From Pseudomonadota bacterium (GTDB lineage: Bacteria > Pseudomonadota > Gammaproteobacteria > UBA9214), in the NCBI GenBank assembly GCA_039714975.1, contig JBDLIH010000001.1, positions 34,756 through 98,755 on the forward strand: a stretch of 64,000 nucleotides of DNA. Direction: 5' to 3'. Each line of letters begins with the position of its first letter. Within the stretch, counting starts at the first letter, position 1. Positions 17,386 to 64,000 of this stretch are shown here, in pieces. A program made the translations under genes and the position numbers. The notes beneath the pieces are model-generated. The model searched no databases and was not told the DNA's origin. It saw only the letters and a program-made list of their open reading frames with translations.

Positions 17386-18816
17386 TCAGTCCTCTGCCGG
17401 CACCTTGATGGCGAGGAAGGTCGGGCTGCCACTCCGCTGCACCAGCAGGGCCACCGATTTGCCGGCCGGCAGTCCCTTGACTGTTTTCTCGAACTGCTGG
17501 AGATCCGTAACCGGTTTATTGTCAATCGCCAGGATAATATCGTCCTTGCGAACACCTGCCTGGGAAGCCGGCCCGGTGACCATGTGAGTCACCAGCACTC
17601 CGTCTTCAATCTCCAGTTCTTCCTTTTGTTCGTTACTGAGATCAGCGGCAGTGAACCCCAGCCGGTTGGCCGTTTTCTTCTCGGACTTGACATCAGCCTG
17701 TGCAACACTCTGATCATCCGGCAATTCACCCAATTTGACGTTCAGGGTCTTTTCCCGGCCATTGCGGATGACGGTCACCGGCAGTTTCACACCCACCTTG
17801 GAGCTGCCGACGATTGGCGGCAAATTGGAGGAATTCATCACCTTCTGCTTGTTGAACTCGACAATGATGTCACCCACGTTGATGCCCGATGCCAGTGCAG
17901 GACTTTCCGGAAGCACCTTTGCCACCAGTGCACCGCGCGGATGTTTCATACCAAAGGACTCGGCCAGATCCAGCGTTACATCCTGAATCAACACACCGAG
18001 CCAGCCACGACTCACTTTGCCGCTGGTCTTCAACTGGTCTGCCACATCCATCGCCACTTCGATCGGAATGGAAAAAGACAGGCCCATATAACCACCGGTG
18101 CGGCTGTATATCTGCGAGTTCACGCCGACCACCTCGCCTTCCTGGTTGAACAGCGGCCCTCCGGAATTACCGGGATTGATGGCAACATCCGTCTGGATGA
18201 ACGGCACATAGTTTTCCCGTGGCAGGCTGCGTCCCTTGGCACTGACAATACCGGCCGTCGCGGAATGATCGAAGCCAAACGGTGAGCCAATCGCCAGGAC
18301 CCACTCGCCCACTTCCAGCTCACTCGATTTGCCAATTTTCACGACTGGCAGGCCGGTCGCCTCTATCTTCAGCAAGGCAACATCACTGCGGGCATCAGCG
18401 CCGATGATTTCAGCCTTCAACTCCCGCCGGTCACTCAGGCGAACGATAACTTCATCCGCATCCTTGACGACATGGTAGTTGGTCATCACATAACCATCCT
18501 TGGAGATAATAAAACCCGAGCCCAGAGACTTCGCATCATGGTAACCGGGATCACCCTGCTCTTCCTGCTCGAAGAAATATTTGAACAGCTCGCCAAACGG
18601 GCTACCCTCCGGAAACTCGGGCATTTCAAACCCTTCCGGAAGCTCCGGCATGCCGGCCTGGATCTTTTGCGTGGTACTGATATTGACGACAGCACTGCTG
18701 GTCTCCTTCACCAGGTCAACAAAGGTGGGAAGGTGATTTGCCCGGGCAGCTTGCATGCCCCACAGGAAAACACCCAGGAACAGGACATACAGTGAAAACT
18801 TGCTAACATTCAACAT
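17386..18816 (-). CDS. Periplasmic serine endoprotease DegP/MucD (HtrA family) with two PDZ domains
   Basis: Catalytic triad context (MTNYHVV, D..., GNSGGPL). Start chosen at MLNVSKF (ATG 18816, GGAGAG RBS) rather than the track's 18831. Follows rseC as in the rpoE-rseABC-mucD operon. Confidence 0.9.
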   Translation of the reverse strand: MLNVSKFSLYVLFLGVFLWGMQAARANHLPTFVDLVKETSSAVVNISTTQKIQAGMPELPEGFEMPEFPEGSPFGELFKYFFEQEEQGDPGYHDAKSLGSGFIISKDGYVMTNYHVVKDADEVIVRLSDRRELKAEIIGADARSDVALLKIEATGLPVVKIGKSSELEVGEWVLAIGSPFGFDHSATAGIVSAKGRSLPRENYVPFIQTDVAINPGNSGGPLFNQEGEVVGVNSQIYSRTGGYMGLSFSIPIEVAMDVADQLKTSGKVSRGWLGVLIQDVTLDLAESFGMKHPRGALVAKVLPESPALASGINVGDIIVEFNKQKVMNSSNLPPIVGSSKVGVKLPVTVIRNGREKTLNVKLGELPDDQSVAQADVKSEKKTANRLGFTAADLSNEQKEELEIEDGVLVTHMVTGPASQAGVRKDDIILAIDNKPVTDLQQFEKTVKGLPAGKSVALLVQRSGSPTFLAIKVPAED

Positions 18817-18856
18817 ACACTTACTCTCCATACCAATTATCAGTCATCATGCCACT

Positions 18857-19324
18857 TTAAACTATATTTCCGGCCTTGATCTGTTGTCGAAGCACCACTG
18901 GCTGATAGGCCGCATCCTGCTCCGTATTCCGGCTGAAACGCTTCAGCCAGATCAATGCCACAACAAAACCGCTGCTTGCACCAACAATAGACAGCAAATC
19001 AGACTGCATGGCTAACAGCTGATGCCCCAGTAGCTGACCGGCCAGCGCACCGGCAAACAGGCCAAGCAACGGGACCGCATACACCGCCAGTGAGCCGCGC
19101 ACCAGACCGGACTCGGCTATACCGACTACCACGTTATCACCGACAGACGCATTGATACGGTTCAACACCCGCAGCCGCACCCGGCGCTGTCCGAGTACTT
19201 TTGCAATCGCCGAGGTACCGCAGCCCTTGCGCACAGTACAGCTACCGCAGGCGGTGGCGCGTGCACTCTCAATCCAGGCAAACTCACCCTGTACCTCAAC
19301 GACCTGTCCGGATTCCTCTATCAT
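18857..19324 (-). CDS. rseC: Sigma-E regulatory protein RseC (SoxR-reducing system RseC/MucC family)
   Basis: 155 aa with an N-terminal cysteine cluster (ACGSCTVRKGCG) and two C-terminal TMs. Position after rseB. Confidence 0.8.
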   Translation of the reverse strand: MIEESGQVVEVQGEFAWIESARATACGSCTVRKGCGTSAIAKVLGQRRVRLRVLNRINASVGDNVVVGIAESGLVRGSLAVYAVPLLGLFAGALAGQLLGHQLLAMQSDLLSIVGASSGFVVALIWLKRFSRNTEQDAAYQPVVLRQQIKAGNIV

Positions 19325-19334
19325 GGACAGAGCA

Positions 19335-20336
19335 CTAGCGTTTGCTTACCGAACGAGCCACACTCTGCACAGTTGCCGCAGGCACTTCACCCACGACAGT
19401 AACCTGGTAGTCGCCAAGCACGGTTCCATATGCATTCATGGCACCCATGTTAGAAAGACCGGTGAATTCTGTATCATTCGCCATCATTTTTTCCACGTAA
19501 ACCGAGACCGTTGCCAGACCATCAGTAAATACCATGTGTTCCGCATGTTCACCACCCTGACGCACCCGCCTGCGCTGGGAATCAGTCATTTTAAAGCCTG
19601 CCGGCAGCAGCGCTACGGTCCAGGTCGACTGCACCGGGTTGACTGCAGGGTTCTCGCCGCCGCTCTCCTGGCGGAACCAGTTATAACCTTCGCCGGTGAG
19701 GGACGGCTCAAGGGAAGCGGCGGGGATCCGGTCACCGACTTTCAGACCGGTAAACATGACCTGTTCGATGGCCGTGCCGTCCACATCGTTTAATTCAAAC
19801 TTGAGCAACATAAAGTTCGTTGTATCGATCCAGAAACGGTAACCGTATCGATATTTATCGCGTGGTGCGATGGCTATCACCCGGGCCATCACTCCGGCAA
19901 CGCGGTCTTCTCCAACATCGCGCAACTGGTAGTAGGGTGACAGACTGTCCAGGTCCTCGGGGACATCGGGAAACGGTTGCCGTGGCCGACTCTGCCCCAC
20001 CATGACGGACTTGTTGTCCGGCATGATGCAGGTCACGACCTTATCATCCCGTAGCACCTCACGCGCACTGCCGGTCAGGGCAATCAAGCGTTCCTTTTCA
20101 CCACCCGGGCTTGCCTGGTGTACGATACGCATCGCCTCCAGCTTGCCACCATGGAGATAGACAAAGGTGCCGTCGTAGTTGAGTGTCTGCAACGCGACGG
20201 ACATGCTGTCCAGCCATTGGCGAGCACTATCCGGGGAAGAATCACCTGTTGCAAAAGCAGGCTGCAGGGGAACCAGCCCGGCAAGGACCAGTGAAGCAAG
20301 CAGCAGCCATTTCACGCCTTTATTCCTTGGCATCAA
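19335..20336 (-). CDS. rseB: Sigma-E regulatory protein RseB (MucB)
   Basis: 333 aa periplasmic protein with signal peptide. MucB/RseB family similarity throughout (LNYDGTFVYLHGG...). Confidence 0.88.
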   Translation of the reverse strand: MMPRNKGVKWLLLASLVLAGLVPLQPAFATGDSSPDSARQWLDSMSVALQTLNYDGTFVYLHGGKLEAMRIVHQASPGGEKERLIALTGSAREVLRDDKVVTCIMPDNKSVMVGQSRPRQPFPDVPEDLDSLSPYYQLRDVGEDRVAGVMARVIAIAPRDKYRYGYRFWIDTTNFMLLKFELNDVDGTAIEQVMFTGLKVGDRIPAASLEPSLTGEGYNWFRQESGGENPAVNPVQSTWTVALLPAGFKMTDSQRRRVRQGGEHAEHMVFTDGLATVSVYVEKMMANDTEFTGLSNMGAMNAYGTVLGDYQVTVVGEVPAATVQSVARSVSKR

Positions 20337-20862
20337 CGTTCATTTCATGACCAACAAGACGCACATAGGGCAACATGCCACGATTCACGGCGTACTCGTT
20401 ATGATTGACCAGATAGGCATCGAGGCTTTGTGGTGCCTGCGGAGAGCTGACAGGCAGTGGCCTGATATCGGCACGCAGGTAGTCTTGTGCAACAGGCGCA
20501 GATGCCATTGCCGGTGCCGATGAGGGTTCATTACGAATGGACTGCAGTGATAACACGGCAACAACCGCAACAGAGGCCGCAACGGCCAGCCCCGCAACCG
20601 GCTTGAACAGGCCGGCAAACCGCGGCGCTTCGACATGCACGGCCGACTCCTCCTGTAATGCGGCCTGTATGCTTTTGTGAAAGCCGGCATCGACCCGGGG
20701 AGGTAAATGATTCTGCAGGGCATCACTGATGATCTGGTAACGTGCCAGACGCTCGCGCAGGGCAGGATCTGTGCCCAGTTGCCTGACCAGTAATGCCTGT
20801 TCGGCAGCTACCAGTTCATCATCAACCAGTGCAGATAATTGTTCGTGTAGTTTCTCTTTCAT
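20320..20862 (-). CDS. rseA: Anti-sigma-E factor RseA (MucA)
   Basis: N-terminal anti-sigma domain LSALVDDEL...ARYQIISDAL, central TM, periplasmic C-terminus. Overlaps the rseB start. Confidence 0.88.
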   Translation of the reverse strand: MKEKLHEQLSALVDDELVAAEQALLVRQLGTDPALRERLARYQIISDALQNHLPPRVDAGFHKSIQAALQEESAVHVEAPRFAGLFKPVAGLAVAASVAVVAVLSLQSIRNEPSSAPAMASAPVAQDYLRADIRPLPVSSPQAPQSLDAYLVNHNEYAVNRGMLPYVRLVGHEMNVDAKE

Positions 20863-20882
20863 AGTGACAAGCCCGTGTAGTC

Positions 20883-21458
20883 CTAATCCAGCAAGGGTTT
20901 CAAACGTGTGTCGATTGCATCCCTTGCCCTGAAGATTCTTGAGCGCACCGTCCCGATGGGGCAGTCCATGGTCTGTGCAATCTCTTCATAACTCAATCCT
21001 TCCAGCTCGCGCAGGATGATTGCTGTTCTCAATTCATCCGGTAACTCGTCTATCGCCTTTGCAATCGAATCCTGGATCTCATCCTTGAGCAGCAATCGTT
21101 CCGGTGTTGCATACTCCTTCAGACCCGTGGCACCTTCATATTGTTCCGCATCCTGGGCATCAATATCGCTTTTCGGTGGCCGGCGACCACCGGCGACCAG
21201 ATAATTCTTGGCAGTATTGATGGCGATCCGGTAGAGCCAGGTATAAAACGCACTGTCGCCCCGGAAGCGGCCAATTGCCTTGTAGGCCTTGATGAAGGCC
21301 TCCTGCGCCACGTCCCGCGCCTCTTCCGGATCATGTACGTAGCGATAGACCAACTGGGTGATTTTGTTCTGATATTTAAGGACCAGGATGTCAAACGCCT
21401 GTTTTTCACCCTCTTGAACCCTCTCAACCAGTGCCTGATCTATGCTTCGTTCGCCCAT
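20883..21458 (-). CDS. rpoE: RNA polymerase sigma-E (sigma-24, AlgU)
   Basis: DQALVERVQEGEKQAFDILVLKYQNK..., region 2 and region 4 motifs colinear with RpoE. 191 aa. Confidence 0.96.
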   Translation of the reverse strand: MGERSIDQALVERVQEGEKQAFDILVLKYQNKITQLVYRYVHDPEEARDVAQEAFIKAYKAIGRFRGDSAFYTWLYRIAINTAKNYLVAGGRRPPKSDIDAQDAEQYEGATGLKEYATPERLLLKDEIQDSIAKAIDELPDELRTAIILRELEGLSYEEIAQTMDCPIGTVRSRIFRARDAIDTRLKPLLD

Positions 21459-21576
21459 CCGGGCTGTCTCCCCTCAACCCGCCACTATCCAAATGGACCC
21501 TGCCCGTAGCGAATAGTTCAGTGTTAGTGTATAAAAATCAGATGCTTCCACAGAAAATACAGCAACCCGCCAACAT

Positions 21577-23199
21577 ATGGTAACTGACAACAGTTTTGAT
21601 GTCCTGATTATTGGCAGCGGTGCGGCCGGACTCACCCTGGCACTGCACCTGCCCGGGTATATACAGGTTGCGGTACTGGCCAAGAGTGCCCTGAATGAAG
21701 GCAGTACGCTGTATGCACAGGGTGGCATTTCCGCCGTCACCCAGGCGACGGATACCTTCGAGTCCCATATTGCCGACACACTGGATGCGGGCGCCAGTCT
21801 CAACAACCCGGAAACCGTACGCTTTACCATCGAAAATGCACCGGCGGCGATCCGCTGGCTGGTCGAGCTGGGTGTGCCGTTTACCCGTGGCAGCGACACC
21901 GGCGACAGCTTTCACCTGACCCGTGAAGGTGGTCACTCCACCCGCCGGGTTTTACATGCGGACGACGCCACCGGACGCGCCATGGAAACCACCCTTGTGG
22001 ATGCAGCCCGCAGGCGCAGTAATATCACCCTGCTGGAACACCATATCGCCATTGATCTGATTACCGCAAAAAAACTGGGCCTGGCGCACAATCGCTGTGT
22101 CGGCGCCTATGTGCTGAATCGCAATCAACAGACGGTCGAGACTTTCACGGCCCGCAACGTGGTGCTGGCCACCGGCGGTGCCAGCAAGGTATACCTGTAC
22201 ACCAGCAACCCGGACACCTCCAGTGGTGATGGTATTGCCATGGCCTGGCGTGCCGGCTGCCGTGTCGCCAACATGGAATTCAACCAGTTTCACCCGACCT
22301 GCCTTTACCATCACAAGGCAAAGTCGTTCCTGGTCTCCGAGGCCGTCCGCGGTGAAGGCGGCCGCCTGCTATTACCCGACGGCACACCGTTCATGGAGCG
22401 TTTTGATGTACGCGGCAACCTGGCACCACGCGACATCGTCGCCCGCGCCATTGATCATGAAATGAAACGCCTCGGTGCCGAATACGTATTACTGGATATC
22501 AGTCACAAACCGGCACCGTTCATCAAGGAGCACTTTCCGACGATCTATGCCCGTTGCCGTGAACTCGGTTACGATATGGCAATGGAGCCGATTCCGGTGG
22601 TACCGGCCGCACACTACACCTGCGGGGGTGTTATAACCGACCTGAATGGCCAAACCGACCTGCCCGGCCTGTATGCCATTGGCGAAGTCGCCTGTACCGG
22701 CATGCACGGTGCCAACCGCATGGCAAGCAACTCACTGCTGGAATGCCTGGTGTTTGGTATCGCGGCCAGCGAACATATTGCCGCTTCTCTGGATAGCATC
22801 CCGGCACCTCCCACCCTGCCCCCGTGGGACGAATCACGGGTGCGTGACTCGGATGAGGAAGTGGTGGTCAGCCATAACTGGGACGAACTGCGCCGCTGTA
22901 TGTGGAACTACGTCGGCATTGTGCGGACCGACAAGCGCCTGCAACGCGCCTGGCGGCGTGTTGACCTGCTGCAGCAGGAAATCCAGGAATACTACAGTCA
23001 TTTCACAGTATCCAATGATTTACTGGAACTGCGCAACCTCGCGCAGGTGGCCGCGCTGATCATTCGCTCCGCACAGTTGCGCAAGGAAAGCCGCGGCCTG
23101 CATTTCACCCTCGACTACCCGGAAGCGGACACCAGCAAGCCACCGACCGACACCATACTTACACCGGAACAAGCGCAGGATATCGACCTGGCGGTGTAG
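21577..23199 (+). CDS. nadB: L-aspartate oxidase
   Basis: [20 protein letters not shown]-binding Rossmann and succinate dehydrogenase/fumarate reductase flavoprotein-like fold. Divergent from rpoE as in enterobacterial and pseudomonad synteny. 540 aa. Confidence 0.95.
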
Positions 23200-23221: not shown

Positions 23222-23338
23222 AAGCTGAGTGCCAGATTTATTATTAGCCACGAAACCCACGAAAGGACACGAAAGAATTCCCAGAAAGGATTTTATTTTT
23301 CTGTGTTTTCCGTGGATTCCGTGGCAAATGTTTTTTTC
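23222..23338. repeat. Palindromic intergenic repeat, copy A (CACGRAA-heptad family)
   Basis: AAGCTGAGTGCCAGATTTATTATTAGCCACGAAACCCACGAAAGGACACGAAAG...TTTTCCGTGGATTCCGTGGC. The left 55 nt is near-identical to copy D at 58735; the arms are inverted copies carrying three CACGRAA units at about 10 bp spacing. Between convergent nadB and acyP. Confidence 0.7.
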
Positions 23339-58109: not shown

Positions 58110-58736
58110 ATGCAGTATCGCCAGATAATCATCACCACCATCATCCTGCTGCTGTTTGCCGTGATCGGTACCACCCTGGTGGCCTTCACCTTTGACAAGA
58201 CCCGTGAACAGATCGCCGCCAATGAACGCGCCACCCTGCTACGTAAACTGCATCGCCTGATCACACCGGACCAGCATGACAACATGCTGCTGGAAGACGC
58301 CGTATCTGTCGCGGATGAAGCACTGCTCGGCACTGATAAACCTGTCATGGTTTACCGTGCCCGCAAGGACGGTGAACCGGTCGCGCTGGTGATCGCGGCC
58401 ATTGCACCGGATGGATACAGCGGTTCTATCAAGATACTGGTCGGCATCAATGTAGACGGTTCCCTGAGCGGTGTGCGCGTGGTTGCCCACCGCGAAACCC
58501 CCGGCCTCGGCGACGCCATTGATGAAGCCCGCTCGGACTGGATACACATTTTTGATGGCAAATCACTGCAATCACCCGTCATAAGCCGCTGGGCTGTGAA
58601 GAAAGACGGTGGCGATTTTGATCAACTGACCGGCGCCACCATCACCCCGCGTGCCATGGTTAGAGCAGTGCGTAATGCCCTGCTATACTACCGTGACCAT
58701 CAGGAAGAATTGTTTGCACCAGCAGCACCAGATTAA
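58110..58736 (+). CDS. rnfG: Electron transport complex subunit RnfG
   Basis: N-terminal TM, FMN-binding domain with TGATITPRA (covalent FMN Thr). Confidence 0.9.
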   Translation: MQYRQIIITTIILLLFAVIGTTLVAFTFDKTREQIAANERATLLRKLHRLITPDQHDNMLLEDAVSVADEALLGTDKPVMVYRARKDGEPVALVIAAIAPDGYSGSIKILVGINVDGSLSGVRVVAHRETPGLGDAIDEARSDWIHIFDGKSLQSPVISRWAVKKDGGDFDQLTGATITPRAMVRAVRNALLYYRDHQEELFAPAAPD

Positions 58737-58852
58737 GCTGAGTGCCGGATTTTTTAATGGCCACGAAATCCACGGAAGAACACGGAAATATTTCTTAAAA
58801 GGCCTTTATTTTTTCGTGGTTTTCGTGGATTCCGGGGCTGATTTTTTTGCTT
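58735..58852. repeat. Palindromic intergenic repeat, copy D (CACGRAA-heptad family), inserted between rnfG and rnfE
   Basis: AAGCTGAGTGCCGGATTTTTTAATGGCCACGAAATCCACGGAAGAACACGGAAA - loop TATTTCTTAAAAGGCCTTTATT - TTTTCGTGGTTTTCGTGGATTCCGGGGC. Begins in the rnfG stop codon. The rnfG-rnfE spacer (146 bp) is the only large gap in the rnf operon. Confidence 0.75.
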
Positions 58853-58881
58853 TTTCAGATTGAATCAGTAGAGGCAGGCAG

Positions 58882-59571
58882 ATGAGCGAGCCAGGCTACA
58901 CACACATTCTCAAAGAGGGCTTATGGGTCAACAACCCGGGCCTGGTACAACTGCTGGGCCTGTGCCCCCTGCTGGCCGTCACCACCAACGCCATCAACGG
59001 ACTGGGGCTGGGTCTTGCCACCCTGCTGACACTGGTTGCCTCCAACGTGACCGTGTCACTGATTCGTAACGTGGTCCGGCCCGAAGTACGCATCCCGGTT
59101 TTCGTACTCGTGATCGCTTCGATTGTCACAGTCATTGAACTGGCAATGAATGCCTGGCTGCATGACCTCTACCTGATCCTGGGGATTTTTATCCCCCTGA
59201 TCGTCACCAATTGCTCCATTATCGGCCGTGCAGAATCCTTTGCCTCCAGACAGTCCGTGGACCGCGCCTTGCTGGACGGACTGGCAATGGGTGCCGGCTT
59301 CACCCTGGTACTGGTCGCCCTGGGTGGCCTGCGTGAACTCATCGGTCAAGGCACCCTGCTGTCGCAGGCCCACCTGATGTTCGGTGAATTCGGGCATCAC
59401 CTGACGCTGACACTGATCGACGATTACCATGGTTTCCTGCTGGCTATCTTGCCGCCGGGTGCATTCCTCGGTCTGGGCTTCCTGATTGCCGGCATGAATA
59501 TCATCAATGCCCGCCGCGAGCGCAAGGCTGCGCGTGTAACCGCAACGACCGCGCAACCGGTAAACGCCTGA
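58882..59571 (+). CDS. rnfE: Electron transport complex subunit RnfE
   Basis: 229 aa, 6 TM, RnfE/NqrD family ([24 protein letters not shown]). Confidence 0.92.
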
Positions 59572-59587
59572 TCGTTTCTGGCAGACC

Positions 59588-60223
59588 ATGAACCGCGCCA
59601 GGCGCCAGGAAATCTTCACGCGGCTGCGAGATGCGAATCCGGAGCCGACCACCGAGCTCCTGTATGGCAATCCATTCCAGCTACTGATCGCCGTCATCCT
59701 GTCAGCACAATCGACCGACGTGGGTGTCAACAAGGCTACCCGCCCGCTGTATAAAAAGATCAAGACACCGCGCGCCATGCTAAAACTCGGTGAAAATGGT
59801 CTCCGGGACTATATAAAAACCATCGGACTGTTCAACACCAAGGCAAAAAACATCATCAAGACCTGTGCCATCCTGGATAAACAGCATGGAGGCAAGGTGC
59901 CAGAGGACCGTGCCGCTCTGGAGGCCCTGCCCGGTGTCGGGCGCAAGACGGCCAATGTGGTACTGAACACGGCCTTCGGCCATCCGACGATTGCTGTGGA
60001 TACCCATATCTTCCGGGTGTCCAACCGCACCGGCATCGCGCCAGGCAAGAATGTCGCCGAAGTCGAGAAACGCCTGCTGCGACTGGTGCCGGATGAATTC
60101 AGGCAGGATGCCCACCACTGGTTGATCCTGCACGGGCGTTATACCTGTGTCGCCCGCAAACCACGTTGCCAGTCATGCTGCATCTCTGACCTGTGCGAAT
60201 ACAAGGACAAGAACCTGGACTAG
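59588..60223 (+). CDS. nth: Endonuclease III
   Basis: HhH-GPD LPGVGRKTANVVL, catalytic K/D, and 4Fe-4S CVARKPRCQSCCISDLC. 211 aa. Follows rnfE as in E. coli. Confidence 0.94.
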   Translation: MNRARRQEIFTRLRDANPEPTTELLYGNPFQLLIAVILSAQSTDVGVNKATRPLYKKIKTPRAMLKLGENGLRDYIKTIGLFNTKAKNIIKTCAILDKQHGGKVPEDRAALEALPGVGRKTANVVLNTAFGHPTIAVDTHIFRVSNRTGIAPGKNVAEVEKRLLRLVPDEFRQDAHHWLILHGRYTCVARKPRCQSCCISDLCEYKDKNLD

Positions 60224-60453
60224 ATCAATATCTTTGCAGCTATTGTAACTCACTGATATTCTGCTATATTTGTAACCATCTTCATGAATATCCATCATCA
60301 CAAGCCATAACTTCAGGCACAGACTTCGCATCCAGAAACTTTTTGATTGAGTCAATGTCGTATTTGTTGACGCAACAACAGGTCGTGGCAAACGACCGGA
60401 ACACCCGGGGCATCTGCCCTGCTTTATATTAAACTCACATGGAGGCATTTCTA

Positions 60454-60792
60454 ATGTCACAAAAAGCTTTAAAGAAACCCCTGGCCATTGCCCTTGGTGC
60501 CGCATTCGTAACTTCTCTGGCCGGTACCCCGGTTGCCAATGCGGCGGAAAACCCGTTTGCCATGTCCGAGCTGTCCAGCGGCTACGTAGTAGCCGAGATG
60601 GAAGAAGGCAAGTGCGGCGAAGGCAAGTGCGGCGGCGACAAGGCCAAGAAAGAAGGCAAGTGCGGCGGTGACAAGGCCGCCACTGAAGACAAGGCCACAG
60701 CAGAAGGCAAGTGCGGTGAAGGCAAGTGCGGTGGCGAGAAGAAAGTGGAAGAAGGCAAGTGCGGTGAAGGCAAGTGCGGCGCTAGCAAGTAA
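60454..60792 (+). CDS. Secreted Cys-repeat RiPP precursor peptide (bufferin-like, EGKCG-repeat type)
   Basis: ATG 60454 with GGAGG RBS (M6 of track ORF). Sec signal MSQKALKKPLAIALGAAFVTSLAGTPVANA|AENPF..., then 7 Cys in EGKCGEGKCGG / EGKCGG modules. Directly upstream of the DUF692 and DUF2063 genes. Confidence 0.7.
   Translation: MSQKALKKPLAIALGAAFVTSLAGTPVANAAENPFAMSELSSGYVVAEMEEGKCGEGKCGGDKAKKEGKCGGDKAATEDKATAEGKCGEGKCGGEKKVEEGKCGEGKCGASK
60604..60790 (+). repeat. Tandem 15 bp coding repeats (GAAGGCAAGTGCGGN, 7 copies) inside the precursor gene
   Basis: gaaggcaagtgcggcgaaggcaagtgcggcggc ... gaaggcaagtgcggtgaaggcaagtgcggt...: visible by eye. Generates the antisense artefact ORF 60582..61004 (PHLPSPHLPS repeats). 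Confidence 0.8.
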
Positions 60793-60812
60793 TTTAACCG
60801 CTCTGTCTTGTT

Positions 60813-61679
60813 GTGAGCACTAAAGCCTATCCTGTTACAGGAACGGGTCTTGGCTTGCGGCGGTCCCTGATGGGGCCGCTGCAGGACAATCCACCCGAAC
60901 CGGTTGATTTTTTCGAGATCGCCCCCGAGAACTGGATCGGTATCGGGGGCAGGATGGGCAAGGACTTCCGCTACTTTACCGAACGTTACCCCTTTATCGC
61001 GCACGGACTGTCGTTGTCAATCGGCAGCCCTGCCCCACTGGACGAAACATTTATCCAGCGCGTCAAGCGCCTGCTCGATGAACATCATATTCGTTTCTAT
61101 TCCGAACACCTGAGTTATTGCAGTGATAACGGACATCTCTATGACCTGATGCCGATCCCCTTTACGGAAGAAGCCGTGCACTATGTTGCCGGACGTATCC
61201 GCCGCGTGCAGAATATACTCGAGCGCCGGATTGCAATGGAGAACGTTTCCTACTACGCCGCACCCGGCAAGGAAATGGAAGAAATCGATTTCATCAATGC
61301 GGTACTTGCAGAGGCCGATTGTGATCTGCTGCTCGACGTGAACAATATCTACGTCAACAGCATCAACCACCGCTATGACGCAGAATCCTTCATGAAGGCA
61401 TTGCCGGCCGAACGCGTGGTCTATTTCCACATGGCCGGACACTATGATGAAGCCGATGACCTCAAGGTAGACACCCATGGCGCGCCGGTTATTGAACCGG
61501 TCTGGTCATTACTGGAAGCGGCCTACCAGCATTTCGGTGTGGTACCCACACTGCTGGAACGTGACTTCAACATCCCGCCACTGCCGGAATTACTCGCTGA
61601 AGTCAGTCACATAAAACGTTTGCAGGACAAGTGGGACGACCACCATGCCAAAGACATCAGTCATGGAATCCACGCCTGA
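60813..61679 (+). CDS. DUF692-family protein (MbnB-like TIM-barrel di-iron enzyme)
   Basis: GTG start. N-terminal [10 protein letters not shown] (GxGLGxR motif of DUF692), HMAGHY..., 288 aa, length and motif pattern of DUF692/MbnB. Confidence 0.75.
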
Positions 61680-62430
61680 ATTTATTCAGCGGCAATATGA
61701 GTTTGCCGCGCATATCCGCGACCCGGATCATAAACCTGCACCCGGTGACGTTGAAGACCGACGCATGGCAATCTATCGTGAACTCTTTTACAACAATGTA
61801 GAAGGCTTTCTCAGCAACACCTTTCCTGTATTACGCGAACTCCATGACGACGACCGCTGGCATGCCATGGTACGGGACTTCTTCAGCCAGCATCTTTCGC
61901 AGACACCGTTGTTCCTGGAGATCCCGCGTGAATTCCTCGCCTGGCTGGAGAACGAGCGGAATACACAGCAGGCAGATCTGCCGTTCATGCAGGAACTGGC
62001 CCATTATGAATGGGTTGAGCTCGCACTCTCGATCTCCGAAGAAAACATCACAGCGGCAGCCGCAGACCCCGAGGGTGACTTCCTGACGGGCATACCGGTA
62101 CTGTCGCCCCTGGTATGGCACCTGGCCTACCACTACCCGGTACACAGGATTGGCCCGGACTACCAGCCAGACCAGCCGGGTGACAGCATGACCTGCCTTG
62201 TGGTCTACCGTAACCGTGAAGATGAAGTCGGCTTTATGGAGGTCAACCCGGTGACCAAGCGTTTACTGGAACTCGTCGATGCAGACGAAGGCGAGAGCGG
62301 TGAACAGTTGTTGAACCGCATCGCGACCGAGATGTCACATCCACAGCCCGAGGTTGTCATCAACAGTGGCCTTGATATTTTCAAGGGACTTGCACAAAAA
62401 GACATTATTCTCGGTGTTAAAACACCGTAA
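61645..62430 (+). CDS. DUF2063-family protein (MbnC-like partner of DUF692)
   Basis: 261 aa overlapping the DUF692 gene end by 35 nt. N-terminal [15 protein letters not shown]...FYNNVEGFL pattern typical of DUF2063 proteins encoded immediately downstream of DUF692. Confidence 0.65.
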
Positions 62431-62478
62431 TCCCGCCACCGGGATTACACGATCATTACAGCACAAAGGGAGAGTCGC

Positions 62479-63123
62479 ATGATCGTAATACTGAATTTTT
62501 TCCAGAACCTGCTGGACAAGTTCCGCGCCCTTGATTTTCTTGCACCACTGGCACTGCGGCTTTACCTGGTACCTATCTTCTGGATGGCAGGCACCATGAA
62601 ACTGAAAAATGCCGGACTCGACTGTCTCTCCGGTGTCAACGGTCCCTGTGATTTCACACCCAAGCAGGACATCATTGACTGGTTCGGCAATGTGGAGTGG
62701 GGCCTCGGGCTGCCCTACCCCGAATTACTGGCCTATCTGGCCTCCTATACCGAATACTTTGGCGCTATCCTGCTGCTGATCGGACTGGCAGTGCGCTGGA
62801 TTTCCATCCCGCTCATGGTCACCATGGTTGTCGCCGCGGTCACGGTTCACCTTCCGAATGGCTGGCTGGCGATTGCGGATGGCAGCGGCATCTTTGCGAC
62901 AGCACGTACCGAGGGTGCCGTCGAGCGACTGAATGTTGCCAAAGACATCCTGCAGGAACATGGCAACTACAGCTGGTTAACCGAAAACGGCAGTTTTGTG
63001 GTACTGAATAACGGCATCGAATTTTCCGTCACCTATTTCATCATGTTACTGACCTTGTTCTTCATTGGTGCCGGCAAGTACTTCAGTGTTGACTACTTTA
63101 TTGCGCGCAAGTGGCGTCGCTGA
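62479..63123 (+). CDS. DoxX-family membrane protein
   Basis: YLASYTEYFGAILLLIGLAVRW (DoxX Y..E..G..LLL.G signature), 4 TM, 214 aa with GGGAGA RBS. Confidence 0.7.
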   Translation: MIVILNFFQNLLDKFRALDFLAPLALRLYLVPIFWMAGTMKLKNAGLDCLSGVNGPCDFTPKQDIIDWFGNVEWGLGLPYPELLAYLASYTEYFGAILLLIGLAVRWISIPLMVTMVVAAVTVHLPNGWLAIADGSGIFATARTEGAVERLNVAKDILQEHGNYSWLTENGSFVVLNNGIEFSVTYFIMLLTLFFIGAGKYFSVDYFIARKWRR

Positions 63124-63153
63124 CCCGGACATTTTTTTAAAGAACACCCAATT

Positions 63154-63233
63154 GGCCACGGAATCCACGAAAACCACGAAAAAATAAAAGCCTTATAAGA
63201 AATCTTTCCGTGTTCTTCAGTGGATTTCGTGGC
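63154..63233. repeat. Palindromic intergenic repeat, copy E (CACGRAA-heptad family, inverted orientation relative to copy D)
   Basis: GGCCACGGAATCCACGAAAACCACGAAAA - loop AATAAAAGCCTTATAAGAAATC - TTTCCGTGTTCTTCAGTGGATTTCGTGGC. The loop and right arm are the reverse complement of copy D's loop and left arm. Confidence 0.7.
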
Positions 63234-63275
63234 TATATTATTTTTTAGTAAGTGATATACGGGGCTTTTCACAAA

Positions 63276-64000
63276 ATGACGAGCGAAATGTTTCCGGTCA
63301 TTGCGACCATTATGCAGGTCATGGCGGCCCTGTTTGTCACCCTGATCGGCTTCGGTGTACTCGCAGTGATTGTGCTGTTTATCATCGACATCACCCAGAC
63401 CAAAAGCGCCATCCGCCGCAACTACCCGGTGGTCGGGCGGTTCCGTTATTTCTTTGAGCAACTCGGCGAATTCTTTCGCCAGTATTTCTTCGCCATGGAC
63501 CGCGAGGAATTACCGTTCAACCGTGCACAGCGCTCCTGGGCCTATCGTGCGGCCAAGGACATCGACAATACCGTCGGGTTCGGCTCCACCCGCGACCTGC
63601 GGCAGACCGGCACGGTGCTGTTTGTGAACTGCCCGTATCCGACGCTGGGGGAGGATGCCGTCCCGACCCGCAATATCACCATTGGACCGTACTGCCAGCA
63701 CCCCTACACGACAAATTCGCTGTTCAATATTTCCGGCATGAGCTATGGCGCTATCTCGAAACCTGCCGTGCTGGCCCTGTCAAAGGGTGCCAGGAAAGCC
63801 GGTTGCTGGATGAATACCGGTGAAGGTGGCCTGTCACCCTATCACCTCGAAGGGGGGGCTGACATCGTCTTCCAGATCGGTACCGCCAAGAACGGGGTTC
63901 GAGACCCGGCAGGCAACCTCAACGATGACAGGATACGAGAGGTCGCCGCACACGAAGCTGTACGCATGTTTGAAATCAAGATGAGTCAGGGCGCAAAACC
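63276..64000 (+). CDS. FMN-dependent glutamate-synthase-family (GltB domain 2-like) membrane-anchored protein, 5' part; continues beyond window
   Basis: ATG 63276. N-terminal TM (VIATIMQVMAALFVTLIGFGVLAVIVLFII), then ...FNISGMSYGAISKPAVLALSKGARKAGCWMNTGEGGLSPYHLEGG..., the conserved FMN-binding region of glutamate synthase-related proteins. Runs off the window edge, hence not in the ORF track. Confidence 0.7.
   Translation, partial: MTSEMFPVIATIMQVMAALFVTLIGFGVLAVIVLFIIDITQTKSAIRRNYPVVGRFRYFFEQLGEFFRQYFFAMDREELPFNRAQRSWAYRAAKDIDNTVGFGSTRDLRQTGTVLFVNCPYPTLGEDAVPTRNITIGPYCQHPYTTNSLFNISGMSYGAISKPAVLALSKGARKAGCWMNTGEGGLSPYHLEGGADIVFQIGTAKNGVRDPAGNLNDDRIREVAAHEAVRMFEIKMSQGAK

Follow-up and report, generated by a model that had tools for sequence, protein, structure and literature searches.

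Which product does the four-gene cluster at positions 60454-63123 of this gammaproteobacterial contig make, and what is that product for? The window, by which we mean the whole 64,000-nt stretch of contig JBDLIH010000001.1 that was analysed, carries there four co-directional plus-strand genes for a Cys-rich precursor peptide, an MNIO (multinuclear non-haem iron oxidase, formerly DUF692), a DUF2063 partner and a DoxX protein (Table 1). The best explanation, which we hold with high confidence, is an hvfABCX operon making a ribosomal copper-binding peptide by the mechanism proposed below. The sequence itself gives the content and order of the genes, their family membership, the conserved catalytic residues and the signal features, while the chemistry, the export and the copper binding are carried over from homologues.

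The genes are closely packed, with a 20-nt spacer between hvfA and hvfB, a 35-nt overlap of hvfB with hvfC and a 48-nt spacer between hvfC and hvfX. The GTG start of hvfB is backed by its relatives, the closest of which have GTG and the more distant ones ATG at the aligned position. HvfA starts with a predicted signal peptide of 30 aa (60454-60543), called by heuristics on its three regions (charge, hydropathy and cleavage site): an n-region MSQKALKKP of charge +3, an h-region LAIALGAAFVTSLAG (15 residues, mean hydropathy 1.97), and a c-region TPVANA followed by AE, with the predicted cleavage between ANA and AE. The mature part holds the segment NPFAMSELSSGYVVA at 60550-60594, conserved in relatives, and then an array of seven EGKCG modules at 60604-60780, arranged as EGKCGEGKCGG twice, EGKCGEGKCGA once and a single EGKCGG. 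The protein has exactly seven Cys, each of them within an EGKCG. The modules are encoded by near-identical 15-nt units (GAAGGCAAGTGCGGY), and the hvfA DNA is tandemly repeated at 15-nt and 48-nt periods (Tandem Repeats Finder score 182). All seven copies share one frame, EGKCG occurs nowhere else in the six-frame translation of the 64-kb window, and the array is not due to chance.

The original prediction, made from the letters of this DNA, had described the same architecture. Its four co-directional open reading frames (ORFs) with short spacers lie where it had placed them, its Sec signal peptide has the n-, h- and c-regions in place and kept in relatives, and its count of seven Cys, all in EGKCG modules, is correct. 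Two details had to be amended. The precursor ORF reported as 113 aa is there with 112 aa and a stop codon, the larger figure counting codons; and of the three EGKCGEGKCGG doubles and one single that had been described, the single and two of the doubles are present, while the third double ends in GA.

To which family the operon belongs was judged with Pfam profiles and curated NCBIfam models, using the NCBIfam cut-offs. All four proteins pass those of the hvf families: HvfA scores 57.8 bits, in three stretches, against NF050137 (HvfA family, repeat domain; cut-off 19.5), HvfB 451 bits against NF003818 (HvfB family; 360), HvfC 328.8 bits against NF050145 (HvfC; 142) and HvfX 224 bits against NF050144 (HvfX; 80). 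With Pfam, HvfB matches PF05114 (MbnB_TglH_ChrH) at 3.9e-107, HvfC matches PF09836 (DUF2063) at 1.3e-28 and PF22106 (NGO1945_C) at 2.5e-30, and HvfX matches PF07681 (DoxX) at 6.7e-19. HvfA has no match in the Pfam scan, DUF2282 included, and the structure search found no solved relative for it. HvfB falls short of the BufB model NF050167 (272 bits, cut-off 310) and of the MbnB model TIGR04159 (45.6 bits, cut-off 325). Because the four HvfA/B/C/X cut-offs are passed while HvfB misses BufB and MbnB, the locus is, by its profile matches, an hvfABCX operon of the EGKCG family (Buf_EGKCG/oxazolin, 'captophorin'), sister to the bufferins proper. The DUF2063 partner, with its predicted C-terminal domain resembling a RiPP recognition element (RRE; RiPP, ribosomally synthesised and post-translationally modified peptide), is by the same profiles of PME type 1. 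Two other assignments were rejected: a bufferin in the strict sense, judged on two models, by the sub-cut-off BufB score and the missing DUF2282, and a methanobactin system (MbnABC) by the MbnB score, the DUF2063 partner in place of MbnC and the Sec signal in place of a leader peptide.

These assignments bear on the remaining claims of the original prediction. The ORFs it had read as DUF692, DUF2063 and DoxX all match significantly (PF05114, PF09836, PF07681), and the class it proposed, a bufferin-like RiPP with MbnB/MbnC homologues, an EGKCG precursor and a DoxX protein, is backed by both the curated models and the literature. Its class was right; as to family, the locus is of the HvfABCX/EGKCG type and no bufferin in the strict sense. 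The statement that EGKCG chemistry is essentially unexplored does not agree with the literature, in which four members have been characterised: oxazolin in 2024 (PMC11252979), bulbicupramide in 2025 (PMC12538549), and fontiphorin and gonophorin in 2025 (PMC12668002).

Are the enzymes equipped for this chemistry? HvfB matches the H. somni MNIO structure 3BWW (3.8e-72), and HvfC the solved NGO1945 structure 3DEE (1.4e-09). The 3BWW protein is 72% identical to the characterised HvfB, in which mutating N175, D242 or H244 abolishes activity (10.64898/2026.07.17.739211). In an alignment through 3BWW, these three residues correspond to N178, D220 and H222 of the window's HvfB. They stand among its candidate metal ligands H64, H99, E143, D175, N178, H206, D220, H222 and E249, all at least 97% conserved over 81 sequences. 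The active cofactor of the H. influenzae homologue is a mixed-valent Fe(II)/Fe(III) diiron cluster, formed only with HvfC present.

Relatives of HvfB were sought in a scan of one genome per GTDB species, which gave at least 585 confirmed matches; locus comparisons refer to the best 80 of these, and the position counts for hvfX and nth to 62 evaluable related loci. The closest HvfB among the matches listed is 88% identical and belongs to an uncultured gammaproteobacterial metagenome-assembled genome. The best 80 are mostly from uncultured Gammaproteobacteria, in bins that include Ectothiorhodospiraceae, Thiohalobacter, Thiogranum, Thiohalophilus, Nitrosomonas and Lysobacterales. The order precursor-B-C(-X) recurs among them: an EGKCG/KCG ORF mostly stands directly before hvfB, and hvfC always follows it. 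hvfX is directly downstream of hvfC in 34/62 loci and upstream in 6/62; clusters of this family often contain the DoxX gene without needing it for membership. The precursors of the relatives share the signal peptide and a segment NPFAMsELSSGYMVA right behind the cleavage site, and carry between 2 and 13 EGKCG modules, while the enzymes of close relatives are 70-88% identical. With enzymes conserved to this degree and a variable number of modules, copper capacity appears to be tuned by repeat expansion. In eight of the related loci, an EF-hand calcium-binding domain (DADGDG...DxNxDG) interrupts the EGKCG array; the window's HvfA has no such insert. Two precursor types, one of them EF-hand-bearing, have been described (PMC12452194), matching the relatives seen here.

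The 230-nt spacer between nth and hvfA cannot be aligned among relatives, save for one block at 60335-60362. Its pattern, GAAACTTT-N14-GTC[AG][TC]A, lies at a constant distance in 30 of 50 precursor-bearing sequences (49 related loci and the window), where a looser search pattern has a background of 0.025 per 400 nt. The search pattern left out the TTT and the final A, yet both are invariant in the 29 tabulated sites, and the hvf site is the only strong match in the window (38.5 bits on the hvf motif matrix). We take this shape, with AAC at -35 and GTC/CGT at -10, to be that of a promoter for an extracytoplasmic function (ECF) sigma factor, and infer an ECF-sigma-type promoter upstream of hvfA with a predicted start near 60369. 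ECF control of homologous operons has been published (RpoE2 in H. influenzae, sigma-E in Neisseria and sigma-F in Caulobacter) and fits this motif. The Caulobacter sigma-F motif, GTAACC-N16-CGAA, differs from that of hvf, and no sigma gene is adjacent to the hvf operon.

In the proposed mechanism, a stress-responsive ECF-type sigma factor would transcribe the operon, as the conserved promoter motif suggests, and HvfA would be made as a 112-aa pre-peptide. HvfC would bind HvfB and the precursor in the cytoplasm and bring the iron cluster of HvfB to its active mixed-valent state. With O2, HvfB would then perform a four-electron oxidation of each EGKCG Cys to a 5-thiooxazole, a modification expected to absorb near 302-305 nm, at a loss of 4 Da per site. 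The peptide would be exported by Sec and cut after ANA by signal peptidase I, and in the periplasm its thiooxazole groups would chelate Cu(I) and sequester excess copper, with HvfX acting as a membrane accessory protein. The predicted mature peptide has 82 aa and a mass of 8227.1 Da, which modification of all seven sites would lower to about 8198.9 Da.

The chemistry, the export and the copper binding follow published work on homologues. In H. influenzae, HvfBC takes 4 Da off each of the six EGKCG Cys of HvfA without requiring the signal peptide, and yields a copper-binding product (PMC11252979). The 5-thiooxazole has been assigned in oxazolin, by reassignment, and in fontiphorin and gonophorin, all three of them Cu-binding peptides (PMC12668002); the original authors of oxazolin accept it (10.64898/2026.06.05.730506; 10.64898/2026.07.17.739211), and in Buf1 it was confirmed by nuclear magnetic resonance (NMR) with selective labelling (10.64898/2025.12.15.693703). 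Work on the bufferins has demonstrated that their precursor leaves the cytoplasm through Sec, is cleaved where predicted and protects against copper in the periplasm (PMC11626156).

Several points weigh on the other side. Mutants of the N-terminal Cys pair C38/C43 of H. influenzae HvfA left partially modified products (PMC11252979), and the window's HvfA lacks such a pair. HvfA also stays below the Haemophilus-type HvfA equivalog NF050188 (47.9 bits, cut-off 95), and since that cut-off is missed we regard the precursor as a family member and not as an oxazolin ortholog. In vitro, a short FonA peptide that contained one EGKCG repeat escaped modification, so that the lone module around Cys70 might do so too, leaving six sites instead of seven. 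In addition, bulbicupramide gave E. coli only slight copper protection (PMC12538549), and what EGKCG peptides do in the cell is still a matter of debate.

How far could a different explanation account for the locus? That the Cys-repeat ORF is no real substrate, being either a spurious ORF of low complexity or a secreted, metallothionein-like protein that stays unmodified while the enzymes act elsewhere, is suggested by its low complexity and the lack of a Pfam match, and yet hardly credible: hvfA has a Shine-Dalgarno site and a signal peptide and passes the HvfA-family cut-off, its N-terminal segment is conserved in dozens of relatives despite their varying repeat number, and the precursor sits directly upstream of hvfB in most related loci, with homologous precursors being proven substrates. 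A product made by the same enzymes and carrying oxazolone/thioamide pairs, as in methanobactin, instead of 5-thiooxazoles is somewhat less remote, although still very unlikely. It was the original assignment for oxazolin (PMC11252979), survives in NCBIfam names and has the same mass as the 5-thiooxazole (-4 Da per Cys). Against it stands alkylation-assisted heteronuclear multiple bond correlation (HMBC) NMR, which reassigned oxazolin and gave the 5-thiooxazole for fontiphorin and gonophorin (PMC12668002), with the agreement of the original authors; the selective labelling of Buf1 points the same way, and the window's HvfB reaches only 46 bits on the MbnB model.

The rival to be taken most seriously, which we nevertheless consider unlikely, leaves the product as it is and changes its main role from copper buffering to envelope defence against oxidants or hypochlorite, within an ECF regulon, or to a copper store or supply for cuproenzymes. 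In favour of this rival are the study of RpoE2, a hypochlorite- and H2O2-induced ECF sigma factor, in which the hvf operon of H. influenzae was tied to oxidative stress, the sigma-E operon in which the Neisseria homologues sit, the ECF-type motif upstream of the window's hvfA, the close homologues that the HvfB scan found in Nitrosomonas, which relies on copper enzymes, and the weakness of bulbicupramide's copper protection. Every characterised EGKCG member, on the other hand, binds Cu(I), and bufferins shield Caulobacter from copper. Copper stress and oxidative stress overlap, so that both roles are compatible, and the copper-binding peptide of an hvfABCX operon stays the reading that we prefer.

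The membrane protein HvfX raises a question of its own. Alignment and hydropathy place in its first predicted periplasmic loop an insert of 17 aa that includes the Cys pair C49/C57 (CX7C) and is shared only with the seven closest relatives among the matches listed, one of which has CX5C. Among eight loci whose HvfB is 81-86% identical to that of the window, HvfX comes in two sequence types: one is about 80% identical to the window's and has the Cys-pair insert, and the other is about 50% identical and has another loop (PETELTVPWEWRT). Two types at similar HvfB identity indicate that HvfX changes, by divergence or by exchange, much more quickly than the enzymes do. HvfX was described as uncharacterised up to mid-2026 (10.64898/2026.07.17.739211; 10.64898/2026.06.05.730506), its NCBIfam name contains 'Cu-binding', and DoxX is dispensable in the bufferin system (PMC11626156). 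It is a long shot that the conserved Cys pair of this clade serves redox chemistry or copper handling on the thiooxazole peptide after its export; the ECF-type promoter would in that case define a dedicated envelope stress circuit. If true, the pair would give the DoxX component of such operons its first concrete function, for example in loading or reducing copper or in keeping the ring thiols reduced.

The transcript itself would carry several structured elements (Table 1). Within the predicted 5' untranslated region (UTR) of about 85 nt, the second of two small hairpins keeps its pairing among 12 relatives through GC-to-AU double changes at two positions. No Rfam family was found in the 5' UTR in a scan of 60150-63400; a sub-threshold nadA match inside hvfB was taken as chance. 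No U-tract follows on the plus strand for the hairpin that separates hvfC from hvfX, and the 66-nt stretch 62415-62480 that contains it has a z-score of -2.5; this hairpin might set hvfX expression apart from that of hvfABC. The palindromic element after hvfX is probably the operon terminator, judging by its predicted fold: the 131-nt stretch 63130-63260 has a minimum free energy of -35.2 kcal/mol and a z-score of -5.0. Sigma-70 promoter-like and terminator-like sites were no more numerous than in shuffled controls, and the sigma-70 scan was not relied on for that reason.

Table 1. Genes and candidate regulatory elements of the hvfABCX locus, in positions of the window.
Feature	Position	Strand	Description
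ECF-sigma-type promoter motif (predicted)	60335-60362	+	GAAACTTT-N14-GTCGTA; full block GAAACTTTTTGATTGAGTCAATGTCGTA
Two small 5' UTR hairpins (predicted)	60381-60397, 60406-60421	+	by folding
hvfA, precursor peptide	60454-60792	+	112 aa + stop; ATG, GGAGG 8 nt upstream; NCBIfam NF050137
hvfB, multinuclear non-haem iron oxidase (MNIO, formerly DUF692)	60813-61679	+	GTG start, 288 aa
hvfC, DUF2063 + NGO1945-type C-terminal RRE-like domain	61645-62430	+	261 aa
Perfect 9-bp hairpin between hvfC stop and hvfX start	62427-62448	+	GUAAUCCCG-ccac-CGGGAUUAC
hvfX, DoxX-family membrane protein	62479-63123	+	214 aa, ~4 predicted membrane helices
Palindromic REP-like element after hvfX	63153-63235	+	long hairpin, then U-rich tract

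An imperfect palindrome of about 85 nt, with arms GCCACGAAATCCACG...CGTGGATTCCGTGGC, occurs three times in the window (~23245-23325, 58758-58840 and 63153-63235), of which one copy separates rnfG from rnfE and another, oppositely oriented, immediately follows hvfX. The arm has 8 matches against 2.0 expected, a number that 0/100 shuffles reached, and none of the 80 related loci contains it in its exact form. The element resembles a genome-specific repeat of the REP (repetitive extragenic palindrome) or MITE (miniature inverted-repeat transposable element) kind.

Upstream of hvfA lie rnfG, rnfE and nth (58110-60223), and the order rnfG-rnfE-nth-hvfA is conserved in related loci. In 36/62 evaluable loci, from several gammaproteobacterial orders, nth shares the strand of hvfB and ends within 1.5 kb before it; shared ancestry and a functional link to the Rnf/Rsx redox system are both possible reasons. 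Downstream, an ORF at 63276-64000 runs past the window end; its product combines a membrane segment at the N-terminus with a domain of the glutamate-synthase type (PF01645, 7.5e-20); similar DNA also follows hvfX in several close relatives. Far from the operon, the window holds an rpoE ortholog on the minus strand (20883-21458; 62% identity by tblastn with E. coli RpoE as the query). The genes that follow it on that strand are presumably rseA, rseB and rseC (rpoE-rseABC cluster at ~18857-21458), named by position alone, together with a 481-aa ORF. The rpoE-rse arrangement at 17386-23199 is the classic gammaproteobacterial layout, and a divergent 540-aa ORF at 21577-23199 is probably nadB. The region upstream of this rpoE stays below the 8-bit reporting threshold of the hvf matrix and offers only a loose GAACTAT-N15-TCCAT.

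Taken together, the locus is an ordinary, unstudied member of a widespread curated cluster, and its differences from oxazolin are minor. Between about 2,000 and more than 3,000 EGKCG precursors have been reported (including PMC12452194), and more than 24,000 MNIO-partner loci are known, in about half of the Pseudomonadota reference genomes. As a discovery it carries little weight: standard NCBI models would name all four genes, and the chemistry, the copper binding and the iron cofactor, the last studied in 10.64898/2026.07.17.739211, are published. What it offers is a testable handle on regulation in environmental sulfur-oxidiser-like gammaproteobacteria, through the promoter motif, and another on the role of DoxX, through the Cys-pair insert of HvfX.

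Among known systems, the hvfABCX operon of oxazolin in nontypeable Haemophilus influenzae (PMC11252979) is built from the four gene families seen here, and its precursor likewise combines a Sec signal with EGKCGEGKCG double modules. The present locus differs from it in having hvfX last, seven sites, one of them in a single module, instead of six, and the Cys-pair loop in HvfX; its precursor lacks the N-terminal Cys pair and falls below the HvfA equivalog cut-off, and its host is an environmental gammaproteobacterium and not a pathogen. Fontiphorin (FonABC, Fontimonas thermophila) and gonophorin (NgoABC, Neisseria gonorrhoeae), compared here by description, likewise combine EGKCG precursors with an MNIO and a DUF2063-type partner and bind Cu (PMC12668002). 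Fontiphorin has seven modified Cys, the same number as the EGKCG sites of the window. In Neisseria, genes for an ECF sigma factor and its anti-sigma factor belong to the same operon, whereas the window has no adjacent sigma gene. Bulbicupramide (MmrABC, Microbulbifer; PMC12538549) also derives from EGKCG cassettes, the precursors of that genus holding five to eight Cys each, and its rings are thiooxazoles that bind Cu(I); no DoxX gene is mentioned for its cluster and the authors call its N-terminal region a leader peptide, whereas the window has a DoxX protein and a Sec signal.

More distant are the bufferins Buf1 (DUF2282) and Buf2 of Caulobacter vibrioides (PMC11626156), whose precursor is likewise exported by Sec and modified to 5-thiooxazoles by a closely related MNIO and its DUF2063 partner, with DoxX optional and copper bound in the periplasm; they differ from the hvf locus in precursor fold and family. 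Methanobactin (MbnABC), a distant case, is likewise made by an MNIO that oxidises Cys of a ribosomal peptide into a copper ligand; it differs in its MbnC partner, its oxazolone/thioamide product and its leader peptide, and in being secreted to acquire copper.

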